Notes under the pieces: model-generated
The model's input: only the letters and a program-made list of their open reading frames with translations
Database searches by the model: none
What the model was told of the DNA's origin: nothing
Assembly: GCA_045599905.1 (NCBI GenBank)
Contig: JAZRWX010000228.1
Coordinates: 1-30,701, forward strand
Source: Acutalibacteraceae bacterium
Lineage (GTDB): Bacteria > Bacillota > Clostridia > Oscillospirales > Acutalibacteraceae
Length of the DNA: 30,701 nt
Reading direction: 5' to 3'
Made by a program: the position numbers and the translations under genes
In this document: one piece after another, positions 4,891 to 15,076 of the stretch
How positions within the stretch are numbered: the first letter of the stretch is position 1
Layout: every line of letters begins with the position of its first letter

Positions 4891-7800
4891 GTGGACAAAA
4901 GCTCAGGAAAAAGCCATTCACGCAAAAGGAAACGTTATTGTCAGCGCGGCCGCCGGTTCAGGTAAGACGGCTGTTCTGACCGAACGCGTATTTTCATTAC
5001 TTTCCGATCCGGATCATCCGATTTCCGCTGACCGGTTGCTGGTCGTTACTTTTACAAATGCCGCCGCAACGGAAATGCGTACAAGGATCGAAAAACGATT
5101 GGAGGAAGAATGCGCAAAGAATACCGAAAATCATAATGCGCTGATGTACCAGAAACATTTGATTTCCTCGGCAAAAATCTGCACGATCGATTCTTTTTGT
5201 ATTGATCTGATCCGTGAGAATTTTGAGATTGCGAATGTCAGCCCGACTTTCAAAATTGAGGATGAAAACGCCTTACTGCCGATTTATCAGGCAGTATTTG
5301 ATCAATTATTGAATGAACGCCTTTCGGAAAACGATCCCGATTTCCGTGATCTGCTTGACATTGTCGGATGTGAATACGGATTTGACGATTTCCGCAAACG
5401 GGTTATGGAACTGTTTACATACAGCCGTCAGATCCCGTTCCCGGACCGTTATCTGGAACGGTTGAATTATCCGTATTCCATACCGTTTGACCGCGATCAT
5501 CCGTGGTGTTCTTTGGCGTTCGACTGCGCCCATACGCTGATCAACGATCTGCAAAAAAGTATTTCAGCTGCATTGGATCAAGTCGAAAATATTGAAAACG
5601 GCGAAAAGTACAATGATATTTTGACAATGCTTGCCGACGTACTGTTTTCATTGCGTGAAGCCGCTGAAAAACGTGATTGGAACGGTATGCGTGATTTATT
5701 GCTGCTGAAACCGAACATCAGACTTCCCGGGTTTACCGGATCGACCAATGCTATTTATAATGTTTTCAAAGAACCGATCACAGCGGTCAAAGATGCTTTT
5801 TCAACACTTGAAACCACTTTTGAATTAAGTGCAGAAGATATTGAACGCCAAATCAAACGGTTGAGCCGTCCGATCGCTTGTTTGGTTGAATTTGCGCGTG
5901 ATTTTGCCGATCGCACTTTCAAAATGCAGTGTGAAGAAAATCTGTTTACTTTTTACAACACAGAACAGATGGCACTGAATATGCTGTGCCGTCCCGGTGA
6001 AAAGGGAATTGAATTGTTACCGATCACCCAAGTGTTTTTTGATCGGTATGACGCGGTATTGGTTGATGAATATCAGGATGTTAACGATTTGCAGGATATG
6101 CTGTTCCGTATTCTTTCCGATCAGGAAAAGCACCTGTTTGTCGTCGGTGATATCAAGCAAAGTATCTATGCGTTCCGCGGATCAAATCCGGAAATTTTTC
6201 TTGAGCGAAAAAATAAAGCAGTCAATGTCGAAATCGCTGATGATAATTCACTGAAAAAGATTTATCTTACTAAAAATTTCCGAAGTCGCCGTAGAATCTG
6301 TGATTTTGTAAATTTCTTTTTCCGTCAGATCATGACGGAACAGACCGGAAAACTGCAATATGATCAGGATGAAGAATTGGTTTACGGTGCTGAATTTCCG
6401 CCGAATGATGCGCCTGCAACTGAACTTTTGTTTTTGAATGACGCGCCGAAAAATAACGCAGACATTATTGCCGCGGAAGGCAAGCGCATTGCGGATTATA
6501 TTCACAGTGTTATGAATGAAAAACCGTTTTTGAAAGACGGAAACGGTCTTCGTCAGGCAAAGTTCTCGGATTTTGTGATCCTGTTGCGTTCTGTCAGCGG
6601 AAATGATTTTCTTCTGACGGAAGAATTACGCCGTCACGGCATACCGGTTGAACACAGTCCCGATGCGTATTTGTCAACTGTCGAAGTTACTACCGTTTTA
6701 TCATTGTTGAGGATCATCGATAATCCGGATAACGACATTGAACTGCTGACAGTTCTTTTGTCGCCAATATTCGGTTTTTCCGCTGATGAATTGGCGGAAT
6801 GCCGTGCGGCCTGCAAAAACGCTTCGCTGATTTCCGCGATCGCTTTTTCAGCCGAAAACGGGAACGAACACGCAGCGGACTTTCTGACAAAACTTGATGA
6901 ATTCCGACGGGAATCCGCTGTATTGTCCCTGCCGAAATTCTTGATCAGGTTATTACTGATTACTGATTATCTGAATATTGTTTCCGCGATGAGCAACGGT
7001 AATAGCCGCCGACTGAATTTGCAGTTATTAATCACCTACGCTTCGACCTATCATGAACGTTCATCCGGCGGGATCGACGGTTTTCTGAACTACATTGAAA
7101 AACTGCCCCAAGGAACGCTTTCCGCCGCGAAAATCGGCGGCGGTTCGGATGTTGTCCGGATCACCAGTATGCACAAATCCAAAGGTTTACAGTTTCCGAT
7201 ATGCATTTTGGCACATTTGAACGATTCTTTCTTTAACAAGGATACACGCCATAATATGCTGTATGATGATGAGATCGGTATCGGTTTCAAATATTTTGAA
7301 GAAAGCGCATCAAAACGTATTAAAACTGTGGCTTTTGATTTGCTGGAACGCAAAAACAGACAACAACGTTCCGAAGAAGAACTTCGCGTTTTGTACGTTG
7401 CGATGACACGTGCCGAAGAACGTCTTGCTTTGGTGATGCCGTTCGGTGATTTGTACAAAAACGTCTGCAATTGTGCGTGTAATCTTTTACTCAATCAGGG
7501 CAGGGTGGATCACCGTTTCTTTGCCGCCGCATCCTCAATGCGGGACTGGATTCTAATGGCCGTTTTACAGCATCCGGACGCCGTAAATCTGCGTGACGGA
7601 CTTGATTTCCGTCTGCCGACACTTCCGACCGAAAGCCGTTTGACCGTTGATATATCTGATGCGGATATTGTGGAAAATACTTATGAGGAGAATGACACAT
7701 CCGCACCGATCGCCGCTCCGCCGGATCCGGCACTTATAAAGCAGTTGAAAAGTAATCTGTCATATGTTTATCCATACGGCCCGTTGCGCGAGATTGAGGC

Positions 7801-8398
7801 AAAAAGCACCGTATCGTTACTGGCCAACCATGCTGAACGCGAGCGCTTCGAGTTTTCGGCAAAACCGTCGTTTATGTTGGAAAGCGGGATCAGCGCCGCA
7901 AGACGCGGTACAGCGACTCACCATGTCATGCAGTTTATGCGTTTTACGGAACATCCCGACGTGGATGCAGAACTGGAACGTCTGGTCGAATGGGCTTATA
8001 TTACGGAAAGCGAAGCAAAAGCAATTGACCGAACTGCTGTTAAAAAATTCTTTGAAAGTTCTTTATATGCCCGTATACTAAAAGCGGATTCGGTACATCG
8101 TGAAATGCGATTTTTAACTGAATTACCCGCAGAACGGATCGATCCGTCGCTGCCGGCGGAGTTGAAGGACGAAAAGATCGTTGTTCAGGGCGCCGTGGAC
8201 CTTTGCATTATTGAAAACGGTTTTCCGATCGTGATTGATTTCAAGACCGACCGTGTGAATACGCCCGAAGAACTGATCGAAACCTATTCGGAGCAGTTGA
8301 ATATTTACAGCAGTGCCTGCAATAAAATATTCGAAAAACCGGTAAGGGAAAGAATAATTTATTCGTTTGCTCTCCACCGCGCGATCACCTTACCGTAA
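4880..8398 (+). CDS. addA: ATP-dependent helicase/nuclease subunit A (AddA/RexA)
   Basis: GGAGG RBS then ATG at 4880. Walker A SAAAGSGKT, VTFTNAAA, VDEYQD, VGDIKQSIYAFR, NFRS, SMHKSKGLQFP, YVAMTRA, nuclease QGAVD...IDFKT. Confidence 0.95.
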   Translation: MGNEWTKAQEKAIHAKGNVIVSAAAGSGKTAVLTERVFSLLSDPDHPISADRLLVVTFTNAAATEMRTRIEKRLEEECAKNTENHNALMYQKHLISSAKICTIDSFCIDLIRENFEIANVSPTFKIEDENALLPIYQAVFDQLLNERLSENDPDFRDLLDIVGCEYGFDDFRKRVMELFTYSRQIPFPDRYLERLNYPYSIPFDRDHPWCSLAFDCAHTLINDLQKSISAALDQVENIENGEKYNDILTMLADVLFSLREAAEKRDWNGMRDLLLLKPNIRLPGFTGSTNAIYNVFKEPITAVKDAFSTLETTFELSAEDIERQIKRLSRPIACLVEFARDFADRTFKMQCEENLFTFYNTEQMALNMLCRPGEKGIELLPITQVFFDRYDAVLVDEYQDVNDLQDMLFRILSDQEKHLFVVGDIKQSIYAFRGSNPEIFLERKNKAVNVEIADDNSLKKIYLTKNFRSRRRICDFVNFFFRQIMTEQTGKLQYDQDEELVYGAEFPPNDAPATELLFLNDAPKNNADIIAAEGKRIADYIHSVMNEKPFLKDGNGLRQAKFSDFVILLRSVSGNDFLLTEELRRHGIPVEHSPDAYLSTVEVTTVLSLLRIIDNPDNDIELLTVLLSPIFGFSADELAECRAACKNASLISAIAFSAENGNEHAADFLTKLDEFRRESAVLSLPKFLIRLLLITDYLNIVSAMSNGNSRRLNLQLLITYASTYHERSSGGIDGFLNYIEKLPQGTLSAAKIGGGSDVVRITSMHKSKGLQFPICILAHLNDSFFNKDTRHNMLYDDEIGIGFKYFEESASKRIKTVAFDLLERKNRQQRSEEELRVLYVAMTRAEERLALVMPFGDLYKNVCNCACNLLLNQGRVDHRFFAAASSMRDWILMAVLQHPDAVNLRDGLDFRLPTLPTESRLTVDISDADIVENTYEENDTSAPIAAPPDPALIKQLKSNLSYVYPYGPLREIEAKSTVSLLANHAERERFEFSAKPSFMLESGISAARRGTATHHVMQFMRFTEHPDVDAELERLVEWAYITESEAKAIDRTAVKKFFESSLYARILKADSVHREMRFLTELPAERIDPSLPAELKDEKIVVQGAVDLCIIENGFPIVIDFKTDRVNTPEELIETYSEQLNIYSSACNKIFEKPVRERIIYSFALHRAITLP

Positions 8399-9201: not shown

Positions 9202-9939
9202 GTGATTTTGGAGTGGAACTGGAAATATATACTGAAAAGATCCGGGATAGTTATACTGGCGGTGACGGTGTTCTGGGTATCAACGCTGTTCGGCGATGAA
9301 CGGCCGAAACCCGTCGTATCGACTGCCGTTCTCGAATCATCACCGACGATCATTATTGATCCCGGTCACGGCGGATTTGACGGTGGTGCCGTTTCCGAAG
9401 ACGGTACTCTGGAAAAGGACATCAATCTCGATATTGCATTTTTTGTTGAGAAACTACTGAAATTTTACGGTTATCGCGTTACTATGACACGAAACGAAGA
9501 TACGGGTACAGAAAGTGTGACCGGTACGATTTCCGGCAGAAAGAAAAGTGACCTTGAAAACCGTTTATTGTTGATGAGTCAAAATCCGGACTCCGTTTAT
9601 GTTAGTATACACTTAAATAAGTATACGACCTCTGCCGCGGCGGGTGCCCAGATCTTTTATACACCGAATATCGAATCCGCTCCGGTATTGGCGGATTGTA
9701 TCCAAGCGACGATCCGCCGGCAATTACAGCCGGAAAACAACCGTAAAGTCAAGTCAGGCGGAAAAAGCGCGTATCTGCTTATGAAAGCGACTGTTCCGGC
9801 GGTGATCGTTGAATGCGGTTTTTTAAGCAATCACCGTGAACTTGAATTGTTAAAAGATCGAAACTATCAGGCGAAGATGGCTTTTTCCATTGTCTCCGGA
9901 ATTCTTGATTTTTCTTCAAAGAATTCCGGCAATACTTGA
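9202..9939 (+). CDS. cwlD: N-acetylmuramoyl-L-alanine amidase, CwlD-like (germination-type Amidase_3)
   Basis: N-terminal TM helix. IIIDPGHGGFDGGA, EKDINL, RKKSDLENR, SIHLN, GAQIFY and VECGFLSN match the CwlD pattern. Start is uncertain: GTG 9202 follows GGGGG, and ATG 9172 or 9181 are alternatives. Confidence 0.75.
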   Translation: MILEWNWKYILKRSGIVILAVTVFWVSTLFGDERPKPVVSTAVLESSPTIIIDPGHGGFDGGAVSEDGTLEKDINLDIAFFVEKLLKFYGYRVTMTRNEDTGTESVTGTISGRKKSDLENRLLLMSQNPDSVYVSIHLNKYTTSAAAGAQIFYTPNIESAPVLADCIQATIRRQLQPENNRKVKSGGKSAYLLMKATVPAVIVECGFLSNHRELELLKDRNYQAKMAFSIVSGILDFSSKNSGNT

Positions 9940-9963
9940 AATTCAACGCTGTTATGATATAAT
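9936..9963 (+). promoter_or_regulatory. sigmaA promoter for radA, overlapping the amidase stop
   Basis: TTGAAA (9936-9941), 16-bp spacer, TGnTATAAT (-10 at 9958-9963). Confidence 0.7.
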
Positions 9964-9997
9964 AAATTTGTTAAAATACGTATGGGATGTGCTGAAA

Positions 9998-11362
9998 ATG
10001 GCAGGAAAAACAAAAACGGTGTATGTTTGCAGTGAATGCGGCTATGAAAGCATGAAATGGACAGGGCAGTGTGCCGGATGCGGGGCATGGAATACCATGA
10101 ATGAAGAACTGTCCGTTCCGTCGAAAGCGGCTGTCAGTGCCACACGCAACGTTCGCTCGGCAACGGCAAAACCGTTAGGGGAGATCGCCGTTGACGATGA
10201 ATGCCGTTTTGGGACCGGTATTCGTGAATTGGATCGTGTTTTAGGCGGCGGAATCGTTAAAGGGTCGGTCGTGCTGCTGTCGGGTGACCCCGGCATCGGA
10301 AAATCGACCATTCTGCTGCAGATCTGCCGATCTCTGCAAAATCAACTAAATATTCTGTATGTGTCGGGCGAGGAATCCGCGGTACAAATCAAATTGCGTG
10401 CCAACCGAATCGGTGTCAGCGGTGACTCCATTACCGTCATGTCCGAAACCGACACGCAGGCGATCTGTGAATATATCCGCATCACAAAACCGGAACTGGT
10501 CATGATCGACTCGATCCAGACCATGCAAATCGGTGAATTATCTTCGTCGGCCGGTAGTATCGTTCAGGTACGGGAAAGTACGAATCTGCTGCTGCACACC
10601 GCAAAAGAACTGGAAATACCGACTTTTATCGTCGGTCACGTCAATAAAGGCGGTGATATTGCCGGGCCTAAGGTAATGGAACATATTGTAGACACGGTAC
10701 TGTATTTTGAAGGAGAACGCAATCAATCCTACCGAATTTTGCGCTCTATTAAAAATCGCTTTGGCTCGACCAATGAAATCGGCGTGTTTGAAATGAGCGA
10801 GCACGGTCTGAACGAGGTTGAAAATCCATCCGCCATGCTGCTGTCCGGTCGGATCAGTAATGTTTCCGGCGGCTGTATTACCTGCGTGATTGAAGGAACC
10901 AGGCCAATCCTGTCCGAAGTGCAGGGCCTGGTGACCACGACCGGATTCGGGAATCCGCGCCGGATGTCAACCGGATTTGATTACAATCGGCTGAATCTTT
11001 TGCTGGCGGTTTTAGAAAAGCGCATCGGGCTATATTTTTCCAATCTTGACACCTATCTGAATATTGTCGGCGGAATGCGTCTGGACGAGCCGGCGGCCGA
11101 TCTTGCCGTGTGTATGTCTTTGGTTTCCGGTTTGCGTGATATTCCGATCGACGAGCATTGGATCGCGTTCGGCGAAGTTGGACTTTCCGGCGAGATCCGA
11201 AGTGTTCCGCGTGTGCAGGCACGTATCAATGAAGCAGAACGGTTGGGATTCACGACCTGCATTTTGCCGAAGAGTTGTCTTCGTCAGTTAAATGATAAAA
11301 ACATAAATATTCAGTTGATCGGCGTCCGCAACCTGCGTGAAGCCATTGATTTGATTAAATGA
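9998..11362 (+). CDS. radA: DNA repair protein RadA/Sms
   Basis: Zn finger CSECG...CAGCGAWN, Walker A GDPGIGKST, KNRFG, Lon-like C-terminus GEVGLSGEIR. ATG at 9998. Confidence 0.96.
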   Translation: MAGKTKTVYVCSECGYESMKWTGQCAGCGAWNTMNEELSVPSKAAVSATRNVRSATAKPLGEIAVDDECRFGTGIRELDRVLGGGIVKGSVVLLSGDPGIGKSTILLQICRSLQNQLNILYVSGEESAVQIKLRANRIGVSGDSITVMSETDTQAICEYIRITKPELVMIDSIQTMQIGELSSSAGSIVQVRESTNLLLHTAKELEIPTFIVGHVNKGGDIAGPKVMEHIVDTVLYFEGERNQSYRILRSIKNRFGSTNEIGVFEMSEHGLNEVENPSAMLLSGRISNVSGGCITCVIEGTRPILSEVQGLVTTTGFGNPRRMSTGFDYNRLNLLLAVLEKRIGLYFSNLDTYLNIVGGMRLDEPAADLAVCMSLVSGLRDIPIDEHWIAFGEVGLSGEIRSVPRVQARINEAERLGFTTCILPKSCLRQLNDKNINIQLIGVRNLREAIDLIK

Positions 11363-11397
11363 AAAAAGCGATTGCGGTATTTCGCAATCGCTTTTTT
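11362..11397. terminator. Bidirectional terminator between radA and the P-type ATPase
   Basis: AAAAAAGCGATTGCG-GTATTT-CGCAATCGCTTTTTT. Confidence 0.88.
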
Positions 11398-11400
11398 CAT

Positions 11401-14010
11401 TTAATATTTTCTGATTTTCTTTATAATCAGTTTCAGTATTTCGCTGAAAGGGATAATCGCAAAACTGAGACCGAGGCAGATCAAAAACTTGTTGAACGGG
11501 ATCAGTGTCAGTTGGAAGAAAGCGCCAAACGGTGTAAATATCAAAAATAATACAATAAACAGCGCAACGCCGACCGAAATATTCATATTACGGTTGGTGG
11601 TAAATAATTGTTTCGGATGCGCGAATATCGATTTGGACGTTTTCAAGTCATACACGTGCAGTATTTGCGAAAGTCCCAAAACGGTAAACGCCATTGTCCA
11701 GGAAATGGAAGAGCTGCCTTTGCCAAGTGTATAGGCAATTATGGACATGACAGCGATAAATAATGACTGTAAAGCGCCGGAAACGCAGGAATAGCGGTCG
11801 AATATGTGACCGGACAGTGCCAACGGTTTGCGGTGCATAACGTGTGCTTCGGCTTTCTCAAATCCGAATGCAAAGAACGGTGCGCAGTCGATCAGCAGAT
11901 TCAGCCACAATAACTGGACGGCAGGCATCGGATAGGTGTGATTTAGAATCATACTGAACAAATAGGTCAGCAAAACGGCAAAATTACAACTCAACAAATA
12001 GAAGACCGATTTACGGATGTTTTCAAACAGACCGCGGCTTTCTTTAATAGCGTCAACGATGGACGAAAAACTGTTGTTGGTAATAATTATATCGGCGGAT
12101 CCCTGCGCAACGTCATTTCCGTACTGACCAACGGCGCAACCGATATCGGCTGTTGACAGCGCCTCAAAATCCGAAGCACTGTCACCGGTAGCCGTGACAA
12201 GTTCGCGCCGTTTTTTCCACGCTTTGATAATCCGCACCTTATCGACCGGGTTGATGCGTGCATAGACTGTATATTTTTCCAAATCGGCTTCCAGCTCTTC
12301 ATCGCTCATATCATTCAGTTGAACACCTGTAAGCATCTCCGTTCCGTCTTTCAGAATTCCGATCCGACGTGCTACGGCACGCGCGGTAGACGGATTATCG
12401 CCCGTCATCATGATTAGGCGGATTCCGGCGCTTTCACAGACTTTTATGCTTTCGATCGCACTGTTGCGCGGGGGATCGGAAAGGCCCAATAATCCGACAA
12501 AAATCATGTCCTTTTCCACTTCGTCAGCTGTCGGTGAAGCCGGAATTTCGTCCAGCGGTCGCATGGCGATGCAGAGAATACGCTGACCGCTTTCCGCCAA
12601 AAGATCGTTCTGTTTCAGAATTGCTGCATGATCACAGTCAGCACATTTCGGCACCAAAATTTCCGGCGCACCTTTTGAAATGGCGAACGGTTTGCCGTTC
12701 AAAAGATTGATGGTGGTCATCGTTTTGCGCTCGGCATCAAACGGAATGGTATTGATCCTGGGGAAAAGACCTTCAATATCGACTTGTGACATAAAATTGT
12801 ACTGAATGCAAGATTGGGTGATAGCGGTTTCGGTCGCGTCGGATTCCAGCGTTGAACAAGCGGTCGCCAATTTTAGAATCAGACCATCTTTTTCGTTAAG
12901 CACCGTATGTTCGTCCATTTCCGTCAGTTTTTCACCGTCGTAAATGGTGGAAAGCGTCATGCTGTTATGCGTCAGAATGCCGGTTTTATCAACACAAATA
13001 ACGGTCGTACGTCCCAGTAATTCAGCGGCGCTTGCTTTTTTGATCATAATGTTGTCGCGCAGGATCCGTTCGATGCCCAAAGCGATCATTACGGATGATA
13101 TCACCGGAATGCCGACAGGAACAGCCGTTACGGCCAGCGCGAATACATCTGTCAGCGTATGAATGGTCATAGTGGCGAACGATTCGTCAAAATGGAACCA
13201 GATCCCAAGGGCGAAATATACAATGCAGAAGACGGCGATCAATATATTGATAAACTTATAACCGTCATTCAGCAACTTTTGTACCGGAAGCATTTCACTG
13301 CCGGATTGCTGTGTTAATATCGCTGTGTGTCCGAGTTCTGTATTCAGGCCGGTCGCTACTACAACTGCTTTGGCGCTGCCCTGGATCACGCTGGAACCGG
13401 CAAATACCATATTGACACGCTCTTCCAACGAAGCAATATCTTCACAAATTGTAATTGCGTTTTTTTCGATCGGTACGCTTTCTTCGGTAAGTGTCGTTTC
13501 GTTGCAACGCAATTCCGAAGTTTCCAACAAACGAGCGTCCGCTGTGACGTAATCGCCTGCATTCAGAAGAATGATATCACCGGGGACCAGATTGGCGGCA
13601 GGAACCGTCTGCGTTATACCATCACGGATTACCGTAGCTTCCGGTTTGGTGATGGCGTGCAGATGATTCATGATTTTTTCACTGTTATAACGGTGAACCG
13701 CTTCGATAACGGCACCGACGATCATCATGCCGATGATCACAAGCGGGGTATAGTAGGCGCTTTTATCAGTGTCTTTATAAACGTATGTAACGATCAAAGA
13801 TAAAATAGCCATTACATAAAGCAATATGGAAAGTTTATTGAAAAGCAAAGATAATAAATGCTTTTTGAGAGAAGGTTTATCTAAATTGGTTATAACGTTT
13901 TTCCCGTAACGGCTCAAACGTTCATCAGCGACACCGTTGGAAAGACCGTTTTCCGGGTTGACGTCAAGTTCCTTCAAAACATCAGAAGATTCAGCACTGT
14001 GCCAGATCAT
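11401..14010 (-). CDS. P2A-like cation-transporting P-type ATPase homolog with degenerate motifs
   Basis: 869 aa with P2 architecture: GLS...RL..YG.N, LVPGD, DKTG, PFD.ERK, KGAPE, DPPR, TGD, about 10 TM segments. TGES, PEGL, DKTGT and GDGVND are all altered (see findings). Confidence 0.85.
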   Translation of the reverse strand: MIWHSAESSDVLKELDVNPENGLSNGVADERLSRYGKNVITNLDKPSLKKHLLSLLFNKLSILLYVMAILSLIVTYVYKDTDKSAYYTPLVIIGMMIVGAVIEAVHRYNSEKIMNHLHAITKPEATVIRDGITQTVPAANLVPGDIILLNAGDYVTADARLLETSELRCNETTLTEESVPIEKNAITICEDIASLEERVNMVFAGSSVIQGSAKAVVVATGLNTELGHTAILTQQSGSEMLPVQKLLNDGYKFINILIAVFCIVYFALGIWFHFDESFATMTIHTLTDVFALAVTAVPVGIPVISSVMIALGIERILRDNIMIKKASAAELLGRTTVICVDKTGILTHNSMTLSTIYDGEKLTEMDEHTVLNEKDGLILKLATACSTLESDATETAITQSCIQYNFMSQVDIEGLFPRINTIPFDAERKTMTTINLLNGKPFAISKGAPEILVPKCADCDHAAILKQNDLLAESGQRILCIAMRPLDEIPASPTADEVEKDMIFVGLLGLSDPPRNSAIESIKVCESAGIRLIMMTGDNPSTARAVARRIGILKDGTEMLTGVQLNDMSDEELEADLEKYTVYARINPVDKVRIIKAWKKRRELVTATGDSASDFEALSTADIGCAVGQYGNDVAQGSADIIITNNSFSSIVDAIKESRGLFENIRKSVFYLLSCNFAVLLTYLFSMILNHTYPMPAVQLLWLNLLIDCAPFFAFGFEKAEAHVMHRKPLALSGHIFDRYSCVSGALQSLFIAVMSIIAYTLGKGSSSISWTMAFTVLGLSQILHVYDLKTSKSIFAHPKQLFTTNRNMNISVGVALFIVLFLIFTPFGAFFQLTLIPFNKFLICLGLSFAIIPFSEILKLIIKKIRKY

Positions 14011-14014
14011 ATCA

Positions 14015-15019
14015 TTACTCCTTTGAATCGTTTTTCTTTTCGGTCGATTTTACGGATGCCAGCGGGTTTGAATCGATGGCCCGACGGGACTGCTCGTCCG
14101 AAACGTGGGTATAAATTTGTGTCGTGCCTAAATTGGCGTGACCGAGTATTTCTTTCAGTACGCGGATATCAACATTCCCGTGTTGATACATCAGCGTTGC
14201 AGCCGTATGGCGCAGTTTATGTGTTGACAATCCCTGACCGCCTAAACCGGCTTTTTCAAGATTTGTCATGACGATATGCTGAACGGTTTTATTACTTAAC
14301 CGGCGGTGATTACGACTGATAAACATGGCGTTGCGGTCTTCGGCACGAACAGCATCATTCGGTCGAACCGTCAAATAATCATGTATTGCGCTGACACAAG
14401 CGTCATTCAGGTAGACTATTCGTTCTTTATTACCTTTACCCAAAACCCGCATACTGCCGTCCGCATGAATATCCGTTACGTTTAATCCGCAGAGTTCCGA
14501 AAGTCGAAGTCCGCAATTCAAAAACAAGGTCAGGATGCAATAATCACGTTCTTTGTTTGGACCGTCAACCGATTGCAGTAAATTAATTGATTCTTCCAAA
14601 GAAAGATGGCGCGGCAAACTTTGTTTCAGTTTCGGTGAATCCAGCAATTCCGCAGGATTATTTTCAATCAGATGTGTCTGTGCGGAAAGATATCGGAAAA
14701 ATATCCGCAGGGTAGAGGACTTGCGTGCGCGCGTGGTGGCGTTGTTGTCACGCTCATTTTTGCAGTATACGATGAACGCATACAAATCGGAAATAGTGAC
14801 CGAACGGACCAGTTCCAAATCAACCGAATCGATTGAAATCTTTTCAAAAGGGGTATTTGGCTCGGTTTTTCCGCGAATCATCAGCAGATAACGAAAAAAA
14901 GTCTGTAAATCAAAATAATATTCTTCAACAGAGCGTGACGATTTACCTTTGATTGTTTCGCTGTATGTCAAAAAGTCACGAATCACCGGCGGTGCTGTCA
15001 TTAATATTTCATGTTTCAT
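14015..15019 (-). CDS. xerC: Chromosomal-type tyrosine recombinase (clostridial XerC-like, with XerS-like features)
   Basis: Complete catalytic set: GLRLSEL (R), GKGNKER (K), HKLRH, LGH, TTQIYTH (Y). GAGG RBS. No mobile-element cargo is adjacent. Confidence 0.8.
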   Translation of the reverse strand: MKHEILMTAPPVIRDFLTYSETIKGKSSRSVEEYYFDLQTFFRYLLMIRGKTEPNTPFEKISIDSVDLELVRSVTISDLYAFIVYCKNERDNNATTRARKSSTLRIFFRYLSAQTHLIENNPAELLDSPKLKQSLPRHLSLEESINLLQSVDGPNKERDYCILTLFLNCGLRLSELCGLNVTDIHADGSMRVLGKGNKERIVYLNDACVSAIHDYLTVRPNDAVRAEDRNAMFISRNHRRLSNKTVQHIVMTNLEKAGLGGQGLSTHKLRHTAATLMYQHGNVDIRVLKEILGHANLGTTQIYTHVSDEQSRRAIDSNPLASVKSTEKKNDSKE

Positions 15020-15047: not shown

Positions 15048-15076
15048 ACTATAACACTTTTTCATATAATTTTCAA
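15048..15076 (-). promoter_or_regulatory. sigmaA promoter for the xer gene
   Basis: On the minus strand: TTGAAA, 17-bp spacer, TGnTATAGT. Confidence 0.6.

Follow-up and report, generated by a model that had tools for sequence, protein, structure and literature searches.

The window analyzed here, 30,701 nucleotides of contig JAZRWX010000228.1 from the Acutalibacteraceae bacterium assembly GCA_045599905.1, encodes on its minus strand a P-type ATPase that we call P0001. The protein is the product of a live gene maintained by selection, which descends from the clostridial P2A Ca2+ pumps by way of a fast-evolving Oscillospirales lineage. Three of the six Ca2+ ligands are gone from it (E309, E771 and T799 in SERCA numbering), and it very probably no longer pumps Ca2+. 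With moderate confidence, we favor a P-type ATPase that would still run through its phosphorylation cycle and whose membrane path would no longer serve Ca2+, being either given over to another small cation or uncoupled from transport.

The motifs TGES, DKTGT and GDGxND are near-invariant among P-type ATPases, and a glutamate in the fourth transmembrane helix (TM4) is a hallmark of P2 cation sites. An earlier sequence-only reading of this DNA had listed departures of the protein from these and further motifs. We found every one of them in the translation at coordinates that agree with our recomputed ones. The coding sequence and its diagnostic positions are given below, with substitutions in SERCA numbering and residue ranges in that of P0001.

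11401-14010, minus strand: coding sequence of P0001, an intact P2A-derived P-type ATPase of 869 amino acids (open frame, Pfam, AlphaFold2 model, structural matches)
13702-13704, minus strand: Glu103 in TM2, a new acid specific to the lineage, Asp in the ortholog P0002 (alignment)
13477-13488, minus strand: A-domain loop TEES (canonical TGES), context TLTEESVP, residues 175-178; G182 is Glu, E183 and the Ser are kept (translation)
13105-13119, minus strand: TM4 PVGIP (canonical PEGLP), context AVPVGIPV, residues 298-302; the site-II glutamate E309 is Val (translation)
12970-12990, minus strand: phosphorylation loop DKTGILT (canonical DKTGTLT), context CVDKTGILT, residues 341-347; Asp341, Lys342, Thr343 and Gly344 are kept, T355 is Ile (translation)
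12829-12843, minus strand: N-domain SDATE (canonical GDPTE), residues 390-394; the Thr and Glu are kept (translation)
12169-12186, minus strand: hinge GDSASD (canonical GDGVND), context TGDSASDFEAL, residues 609-614; D703 and D707 are kept, G704 and N706 are both Ser (translation)
12067-12078, minus strand: NNSF (canonical DDNF), residues 645-648 (translation)
11974-11991, minus strand: TM5 SCNFAV, residues 674-679; N768 is kept, E771 is Val (translation)
11887-11901, minus strand: TM6 NLLID, residues 704-708; N796 and D800 are kept, T799 is Ile (translation)

The Pfam domains of P0001 (Cation_ATPase_N, E1-E2_ATPase, Cation_ATPase, Hydrolase and Cation_ATPase_C) make up the full P2-type set. 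An AlphaFold2 model computed with 40 relatives as input (pLDDT 87, pTM 0.80) has ten TM helices and the actuator (A), nucleotide-binding (N) and phosphorylation (P) domains, and its best structural matches are E1 states of SERCA and LMCA1. The nucleotide-binding elements and the P-domain lysine, described as retained in the sequence-only reading, are read intact as PFDAERK, KGAPE, DPPR, MMTGDN and the Lys within NPVDKVRI. Core residues D341, K342, T343, G344, T347, F424, K429, K446, R515, T536-G-D, R585, K591, D610 and D614 are all present, so that the HAD core is complete at the positions that correspond to SERCA D351, K352, T353, G354, T625-G-D, K684, D703 and D707. P0001 thus carries the features of the superfamily, namely the DKTG aspartate, HAD motifs II-IV (the TGD threonine, the lysine and the two aspartates), the A, N and P domains and a ten-helix membrane part; the canonical TGES dephosphorylation loop is replaced by TEES. 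The cytoplasmic catalytic positions that are altered are only G182, T355, G704 and N706. In the membrane, the position of E908 is a glutamine in addition to the ligand losses above. The only NCBIfam model that the protein passes is the generic P-type model TIGR01494 (P-type ATPase superfamily, HAD-IC; 222.8 bits, cut-off 62.3). Its nearest equivalogs are PMR1, SERCA and PMCA, and all three score under their cut-offs (TIGR01522, 434 vs 798.3; TIGR01116, 375 vs 703.4; TIGR01517, 360 vs 507).

To separate what is particular to P0001 from what it shares with its relatives, we used a set of close homologs consisting of the 120 best database matches (50-67% identity, at least 120 sequence clusters), or 121 sequences with P0001. 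All 121 read DKTG[V/I/L], and nearly all have a GDS-x-[Q/H/E/D]-D hinge that lacks Asn706 (consensus GDSVQD), NN[R/H/S]F in place of DDNF, and NDSTE where GDPTE is canonical. TGES is free to vary at its third and fourth positions (TGDE in 64, TGVE in 10, TGES in 9, and others such as TDD), while its glycine is kept in nearly all close members. By this comparison, DKTGI, the GDS..D hinge, NNSF and SDATE read as traits of the clade and are not particular to P0001. The Ca2+ ligands follow a different pattern. E309 is kept in 119 of the 121 sequences, which argues that its loss was a discrete event and not drift at a tolerant position. The TM5 glutamate (E771) is kept in nearly all, as is the TM6 aspartate, and T799 is found in 98% of the other close homologs. 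The systematic loss of pump motifs put forward in the sequence-only reading therefore holds for E309, E771, T799 and G182, which are lost in P0001 and P0002; about half of the listed deviations are instead clade-wide traits, and the HAD core is fully kept. Of the motifs whose conservation in a clade that reading suggested testing, the GDS-x-x-D hinge is clade-wide; the replacement of the TGES glycine by Glu and the loss of the TM4 glutamate are confined, among the close homologs, to the lineage of P0001 and P0002.

P0002 is the nearest full-length relative (67% identity; GCA_024404235.1, locus L024), and the two loci have the same gene order: PBP1A, spoIVA, VTT/DedA, a Xer-type recombinase and the ATPase, followed by convergent radA and cwlD. 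P0002 has a TEEI loop, PTRIP in TM4 (E309 replaced by Thr), Val in place of E771 and Ile in place of T799. The loss of E309, E771 and G182, the last replaced by Glu in both, sets only these two proteins apart from their close homologs, and the change of T799 to Ile is seen beyond them only in P0007. Three extra residues are inserted into the TM1-2 loop of their lineage. In TM2, Asn99 (the SERCA N101 position by alignment), which is Asn in 88 of 94 canonical sequences, is Gly in P0001 and Ser in P0002. Position 103, one turn further on, is Gly in 82 of the 94 and has become Glu in P0001 and Asp in P0002; among the clade members in the set, an acid at this position is confined to these two.

In the 119 close homologs other than P0001 and P0002, 352 alignment columns show a conservation of at least 90%, and over these we compared the pair with the rest. 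Both proteins retain 277 of these columns and both have changed at 39. The shared changes are concentrated in TM1-6, where they affect 25 of 96 columns as opposed to 14 of the remaining 256 (odds ratio 6.1, Fisher p = 3e-7), and only a single one falls among the 86 conserved columns of the P domain. Relative to the family norm at equal overall divergence, identity between P0001 and P0002 is 0.77 vs 0.70 ± 0.04 in the P domain, 0.85 vs 0.77 ± 0.05 in TM5-6 and 0.72 vs 0.70 in the A domain; it is lower only in TM1-2 (0.49 vs 0.60 ± 0.06). Because the changes cluster in TM1-6 and the domain identities otherwise lie at or above the norm, the alignments indicate that the phosphorylation engine is as tightly constrained as in relatives whose Ca2+ site is intact, and that the ion path was rebuilt and then conserved.

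The gene itself evolves under strong constraint. A third independent assembly (GCA_045640765.1, locus L120) contains a copy truncated by its contig that is 96% identical to P0001 across residues 472-869 and repeats GDSASD, NNSF, SCNFAV and NLLID. Over the 398 codons compared, which span the hinge and TM5-10, there are 14 amino-acid differences and 89 codons that differ only synonymously. The nonsynonymous rate (dN) is ~0.02 and the synonymous rate (dS) 0.34-0.47, giving a dN/dS of 0.04-0.06 by four methods. The sequence-only reading had proposed that selection, and not random decay, keeps the frame, and had suggested looking for a ratio well below 1; both that value and the intact syntenic ortholog P0002 bear it out. 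At the end of the 2-kb L120 contig, the first ~21 nt (within positions 1-32) are unlike the window gene, with an in-frame TAG just before residue 468. This mismatching end is most likely junk, a truncated copy in that genome being the lesser possibility. For P0001 and P0002, dN is 0.24 and dS is saturated or undefined (YN00, NG86), so that this pair only bounds dN/dS. The dN values of neighboring genes against the P0002 locus are 0.07 for RadA, 0.10 for Xer, 0.14 for SpoIVA, 0.30 for PBP, 0.32 for CwlD and 0.33 for VTT. We considered whether the ATPase evolves faster than its neighbors, and this is not seen, as its value lies between that of SpoIVA and the 0.30-0.33 of PBP, CwlD and VTT.

A wider set, drawn from the 150 best representatives at 50% identity, places these changes in a larger history. 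In it, 65 representatives have at least one non-canonical catalytic residue and 94 others are nearly all fully canonical. All 65 form one clade with no intruders (FastTree, SH-like support 0.93), which IQ-TREE also recovered on a subsample (34/34, SH-aLRT 67). In both trees, the clade is sister to the canonical clostridial P2A pumps P0123 and P0131, with P0001 nested inside it. Its root-to-tip lengths are 2.4-3 times those of the sister group, and the clade itself has moderate support, with long-branch attraction possible. A relative of only 35% identity, P0144, has the same convergent arrangement with radA-cwlD, a synteny also present at L015 and L024, which indicates old orthology and fast divergence. 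Within the clade, D351, K352, T353, G354, T625-G-D, K684 and D707 are kept in 56-64 of the 65 representatives (D707 in 62), N706 in 8 and D703 in 43. Cation ligands were lost repeatedly on separate branches, with E309 remaining in 37 of the 65 representatives and D800 in 35. A few distant members (P0221, also P0198 and P0244) have lost DKTG, TGD and K684 and are nonetheless encoded by full-length open reading frames (~863 amino acids) on long contigs; P0001 is unlike these dead-core proteins. The named members come from Oscillospiraceae, Ruminococcaceae, Acutalibacteraceae and "Clostridia bacterium" metagenome-assembled genomes (MAGs) and have generic annotations throughout; MCQ2448695.1, MBE6769199.1, MBE6798039.1 and MEE1198840.1, for example, are annotated only as "cation-translocating P-type ATPase". 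In a scan of genome contigs, nearly all matches were canonical P2A pumps from many phyla, and one was a degenerate member from a rumen Clostridia MAG (L035). Our literature search found no paper describing this clade or P-type pseudoenzymes of this kind.

Within the GTDB genus of the window, 23 of 24 sampled genomes have an ortholog (45-53% identity) that contains no internal stop; given open frames of 864-869 amino acids, a single TAA flagged in five same-genus matches is the end of the gene. The 19 of these orthologs whose motifs were read have the clade pattern and keep the Ca2+ ligands. Only about 5 of the 24 genomes also have a P2A paralog that is canonical throughout. The genome of the window (G000) is a MAG of 1.86 Mb in 334 contigs and is 83% complete. 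Neither a PF00122 scan nor tblastn of this 83%-complete assembly found a canonical P2A paralog, and the only other P-type ATPases found in it are two P1B heavy-metal pumps, leaving the suggestion of the sequence-only reading that P0001 is a regulatory partner of an active paralog without support. The MAG does encode a 336-residue CaCA (Na_Ca_ex) exchanger (G000:C8:409-1365, L118/L119). This family is patchy in the genus, occurring in 21 of 41 genomes with G000 included, and could cover Ca2+ export in G000 after the loss of the Ca2+ site from the ATPase. No canonical P2A pump and no CaCA exchanger was found in at least three genomes of high quality from the genus (G003, G010 and G017), where the divergent ATPase, its Ca2+ ligands intact, is the only recognizable Ca2+ exporter found. 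For this reason, the odd cytoplasmic motifs of the clade are probably compatible with pumping.

The reading that we favor takes these observations together. Because the fold, the nucleotide pocket and the HAD core residues are all kept, P0001 would still bind ATP and form and turn over an aspartyl-phosphate. The kinetics of turnover are probably altered, since G182, T355, G704 and N706 have changed. The ion-path helices TM1, 2, 4, 5 and 6 were selectively rebuilt in the common ancestor of the window species and the species of P0002: E309 became Val or Thr, E771 became Val, T799 became Ile, N99 of TM2 was lost, and an acid arose at position 103 one turn away. With the TM4 glutamate gone and Val and Ile filling the site, a Ca2+ site of the SERCA or LMCA1 type should be unable to form. 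That P0001 is unlikely to be a normal Ca2+ pump was already the view of the sequence-only reading, and the replacement of E309 (LMCA1 Glu292, PMC11468904) by Val, along with hydrophobic residues at E771 and T799, is in line with it. Two alternatives would then follow: either a different small cation is carried via the remaining N676/N704/D708 center, or the phosphorylation cycle runs uncoupled from transport. The simplest candidate cation is H+: a hydrophobic pocket whose only carboxylate is the Asp at the D800 position would follow the logic of the P3A proton pumps.

Several points weigh against this interpretation. The residues at E309 and G310 differ between the orthologs, VG in P0001 and TR in P0002, a pattern more like relaxation than the tuning of a new site. 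Residues G182 and N706 are considered important for turnover of the phosphoenzyme, and the engine could on that account be very slow or stalled. For the proton version in particular, the analogy lacks two P3A hallmarks, as the TM2 Asn is Gly (G99) and the counter-ion at the E771 position is Val. Finally, the function assigned to the clade derives from sequence, and expression of P0001 is likewise suggested by sequence signals.

Among the rivals, the one that survives best is a non-catalytic pseudo-pump that has kept the fold and perhaps ATP binding, completes no phosphorylation cycle, and serves as a scaffold, sensor or regulator, for example of some process tied to its operon partner or to sporulation. 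We regard it as unlikely, although it draws on real features of the protein: G182E, N706S and G704S hit residues considered important for formation and hydrolysis of the phosphoenzyme, and site II, where ion binding normally triggers phosphorylation in SERCA, is gone. The repeated loss of cation ligands across the clade, and the full length of P0221 despite its missing DKTG, TGD and K684, make a job independent of pumping seem possible. Such a role is difficult to reconcile with a P domain that is the least changed part of the lineage and with the retention of every core HAD and nucleotide-pocket residue, and the 85% identity of TM5-6 between the orthologs exceeds the needs of a plain membrane anchor. 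The ATP-binding sensor or scaffold envisaged in the sequence-only reading is accordingly still tenable, though the preservation of the P domain above all others leaves it less favored than a cycling enzyme.

A further, tentative idea extends the uncoupled alternative to P0001 and perhaps to much of the clade, in which ATP-driven phosphorylation, freed from cation transport, would operate a membrane-embedded conformational switch. It is suggested by the conservation of the engine (D351, K352, T353, TGD, K684 and D707) alongside a cation site that was discarded repeatedly and independently, and we judge it rather improbable for now.

More doubtful still is an exporter of Ca2+, or of Mn2+ or Mg2+, that would coordinate its ion in an unusual way through N676, N704, D708, backbone carbonyls of TM4 and perhaps the acid newly present in TM2. 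Of the three site-II side chains of LMCA1, two are kept (the equivalents of Asn716 and Asp720), LMCA1 itself has Ala at the E771 position, both orthologs have the TM2 acid, and it is the six-ligand relatives from this clade that are the sole recognizable Ca2+ exporters found in G003, G010 and G017. Nevertheless, every characterized P2 Ca2+ pump has E309/Glu292 as the carboxylate that gates site II and coordinates the ion there, and this residue is retained in the close homologs almost without exception; here it is Val, with Thr-Arg in P0002, and E771 and T799 have become bulky hydrophobics in both orthologs.

A decaying pseudogene or an assembly or sequencing artefact, which the numerous departures from invariant motifs and the fragmentation of the MAG might suggest, is extremely improbable: decay is ruled out by the open 869-codon frame, a dN/dS of ~0.05 and a syntenic ortholog that is intact despite saturated dS, and error by the recurrence of the same residues in independent assemblies together with the canonical TGES, DKTGT and GDGIND of the two P1B pumps in the same MAG, because of which the deviations are not sequencing noise.

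The surroundings of the gene provide the signals from which its expression is judged.

14015-15019, minus strand: gene for a Xer-type tyrosine recombinase of 334 amino acids directly upstream of the ATPase, its stop codon 4 nt before the ATPase ATG (domain search, sequence)
14018-14024, minus strand: ribosome-binding site AAAGGAG, ending 7 nt before the ATPase ATG (read from sequence)
15048-15076, minus strand: sigma-70-like promoter TTGAAA-17-TATAGT, a TG preceding its -10 hexamer, located upstream of xer and the ATPase gene (best regional match, 10/12; consensus match only)
11357-11402, no strand assigned: hairpin with a near-perfect stem of ~20 bp, bordered by an A run and, at its other end, a T run, in the gap where radA and the ATPase gene converge (sequence)

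Because the xer stop codon lies 4 nt before the ATPase start, the two genes probably form one two-gene operon with the ATPase second. The same 4-nt junction occurs at the P0002 locus (L024, xer 6983-7996), where the recombinase is 85% identical. The hairpin is probably a bidirectional intrinsic terminator. On the plus strand of the window, the radA reading frame (9890-11362) overlaps cwlD at its TTG start; with the RadA model matching from residue 40 onward and an L024 ortholog of 454 amino acids, the true start is probably near 9998.

Other clade members have their own contexts and conserved features. In the P0014 loci (L025, L026 and L027), which belong to more distant, Acutalibacteraceae-type relatives, spoIIM and a Xer gene are found at a distance of two to three genes from the ATPase, which overlaps by 4 nt the end of a gene for AP-endonuclease-2 (a xylose-isomerase-like TIM barrel). 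That gene comes after one for a YqeG-type HAD phosphatase, an operon context unlike that of the window. P0221 (L117) is located just upstream of a ComM/Mg-chelatase-like gene and uvrC. In an alignment of 40 clade members, an M-I-W-H-S N terminus is invariant or nearly so down to ~31% identity, exceeding several catalytic hallmark positions in conservation, and Cys169, Cys339, Cys385 and Cys456 are nearly invariant as well.

Three features make this system of interest: residues supposed to be invariant are free to change across the clade, the ion path was rebuilt in a targeted way, and cation ligands were lost repeatedly while the engine stayed conserved. Several residues regarded as invariant (T355, G704, N706 and positions three and four of TGES) vary freely under purifying selection in a large clade of gut and rumen Clostridia, within which one lineage rebuilt its ion path specifically while freezing the phosphorylation domain. 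This amounts to a natural experiment on which hallmark residues the phosphoenzyme cycle truly needs and on how a P2A pump changes or abandons its substrate. It also exposes an annotation problem, in that all these genes are annotated as "cation-translocating P-type ATPase" or "Ca2+-transporting ATPase". For most genomes in the genus, the clade gene is the only P2-type pump found, and Ca2+ homeostasis deduced from annotation may be wrong for some species. An uncoupled switch, if true, would be a new functional class in a superfamily thought to hold only pumps and flippases.

Among solved structures, the best sequence match to P0001 (E = 1e-133, residues 12-866) is LMCA1, the P2A Ca2+-ATPase of Listeria monocytogenes (lmo0841; PDB 6zhf, 9euq/9evc). 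The two share the architecture of ten TM helices and A, N and P domains, the P0001 model aligning to the E1-Ca state of LMCA1 with a TM-score of 0.83, and their identity is about 31-35%. LMCA1 holds its single Ca2+ by Glu292, Asn716 and Asp720, which correspond to SERCA E309, N796 and D800, and its E771 position is Ala (PMC11468904). P0001 keeps the equivalents of Asn716 and Asp720 as N704 and D708, and neither protein has Glu at the E771 position. It differs from LMCA1 in having Val for Glu292, in its altered TGES, DKTGT, GDGVND and DDNF motifs, and in the absence of an Arg795-type residue from TM8, where it has Gln. With SERCA1a and the PMR1-SPCA pumps, P0001 has in common the fold, the order of domains (TM-score 0.86-0.89 against SERCA E1 states) and the residues N768, N796 and D800. 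It departs from them in the absence of E309, E771 and T799, in Gln for E908, in the changes at G182, T355, G704 and N706, and in scores far under the TIGR01116 and TIGR01522 cut-offs. With the unnamed clade, it shares DKTG[VIL], GDS-x-x-D in the absence of N706, NN[RHS]F, [NS]D[SA]TE, a variable TGES loop and the position beside radA-cwlD. Nearly all close members of that clade keep the six Ca2+ ligands and the TGES glycine, whereas P0001 and P0002 have lost E309, E771 and G182 and gained the TM2 acid.

The membrane site of P0001 also invites comparison with the P3A H+-ATPases AHA2 and Pma1, which likewise have a single carboxylate at the D800 position (Asp684 in AHA2, D708 in P0001) in an otherwise non-acidic TM4/5/6 core and a hydrophobic residue at the E309 position of TM4. 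The TM4 motif of these pumps is PVGLP in Pma1 and PIAMP in AHA2. The proton site of AHA2 is Asp684, which superposes on SERCA D800 and has Asn106 of TM2 as its partner. A built-in counter-ion is supplied by Arg655 at the E771 position, a role filled by Arg655 or His701 in P3A pumps (PMC5387105). We infer that Asn106 is equivalent to SERCA N101. P0001 differs in having neither the TM2 Asn partner (G99) nor the TM5 Arg/His counter-ion (V679 at the E771 position). Membership of the P3A family is ruled out, since the score for TIGR01647 is 365.4 bits against a cut-off of 615.5, the two defining residues are missing, and the proteins are not related by descent. Of the P2A features, P0001 has the descent and the Asn and Asp of TM6 (N704 and D708). 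Because the site-II glutamate of TM4 is missing and the equivalog scores are too low, its sequence places it as P2A-type by descent and outside the functional definition of a P2A Ca2+ pump.

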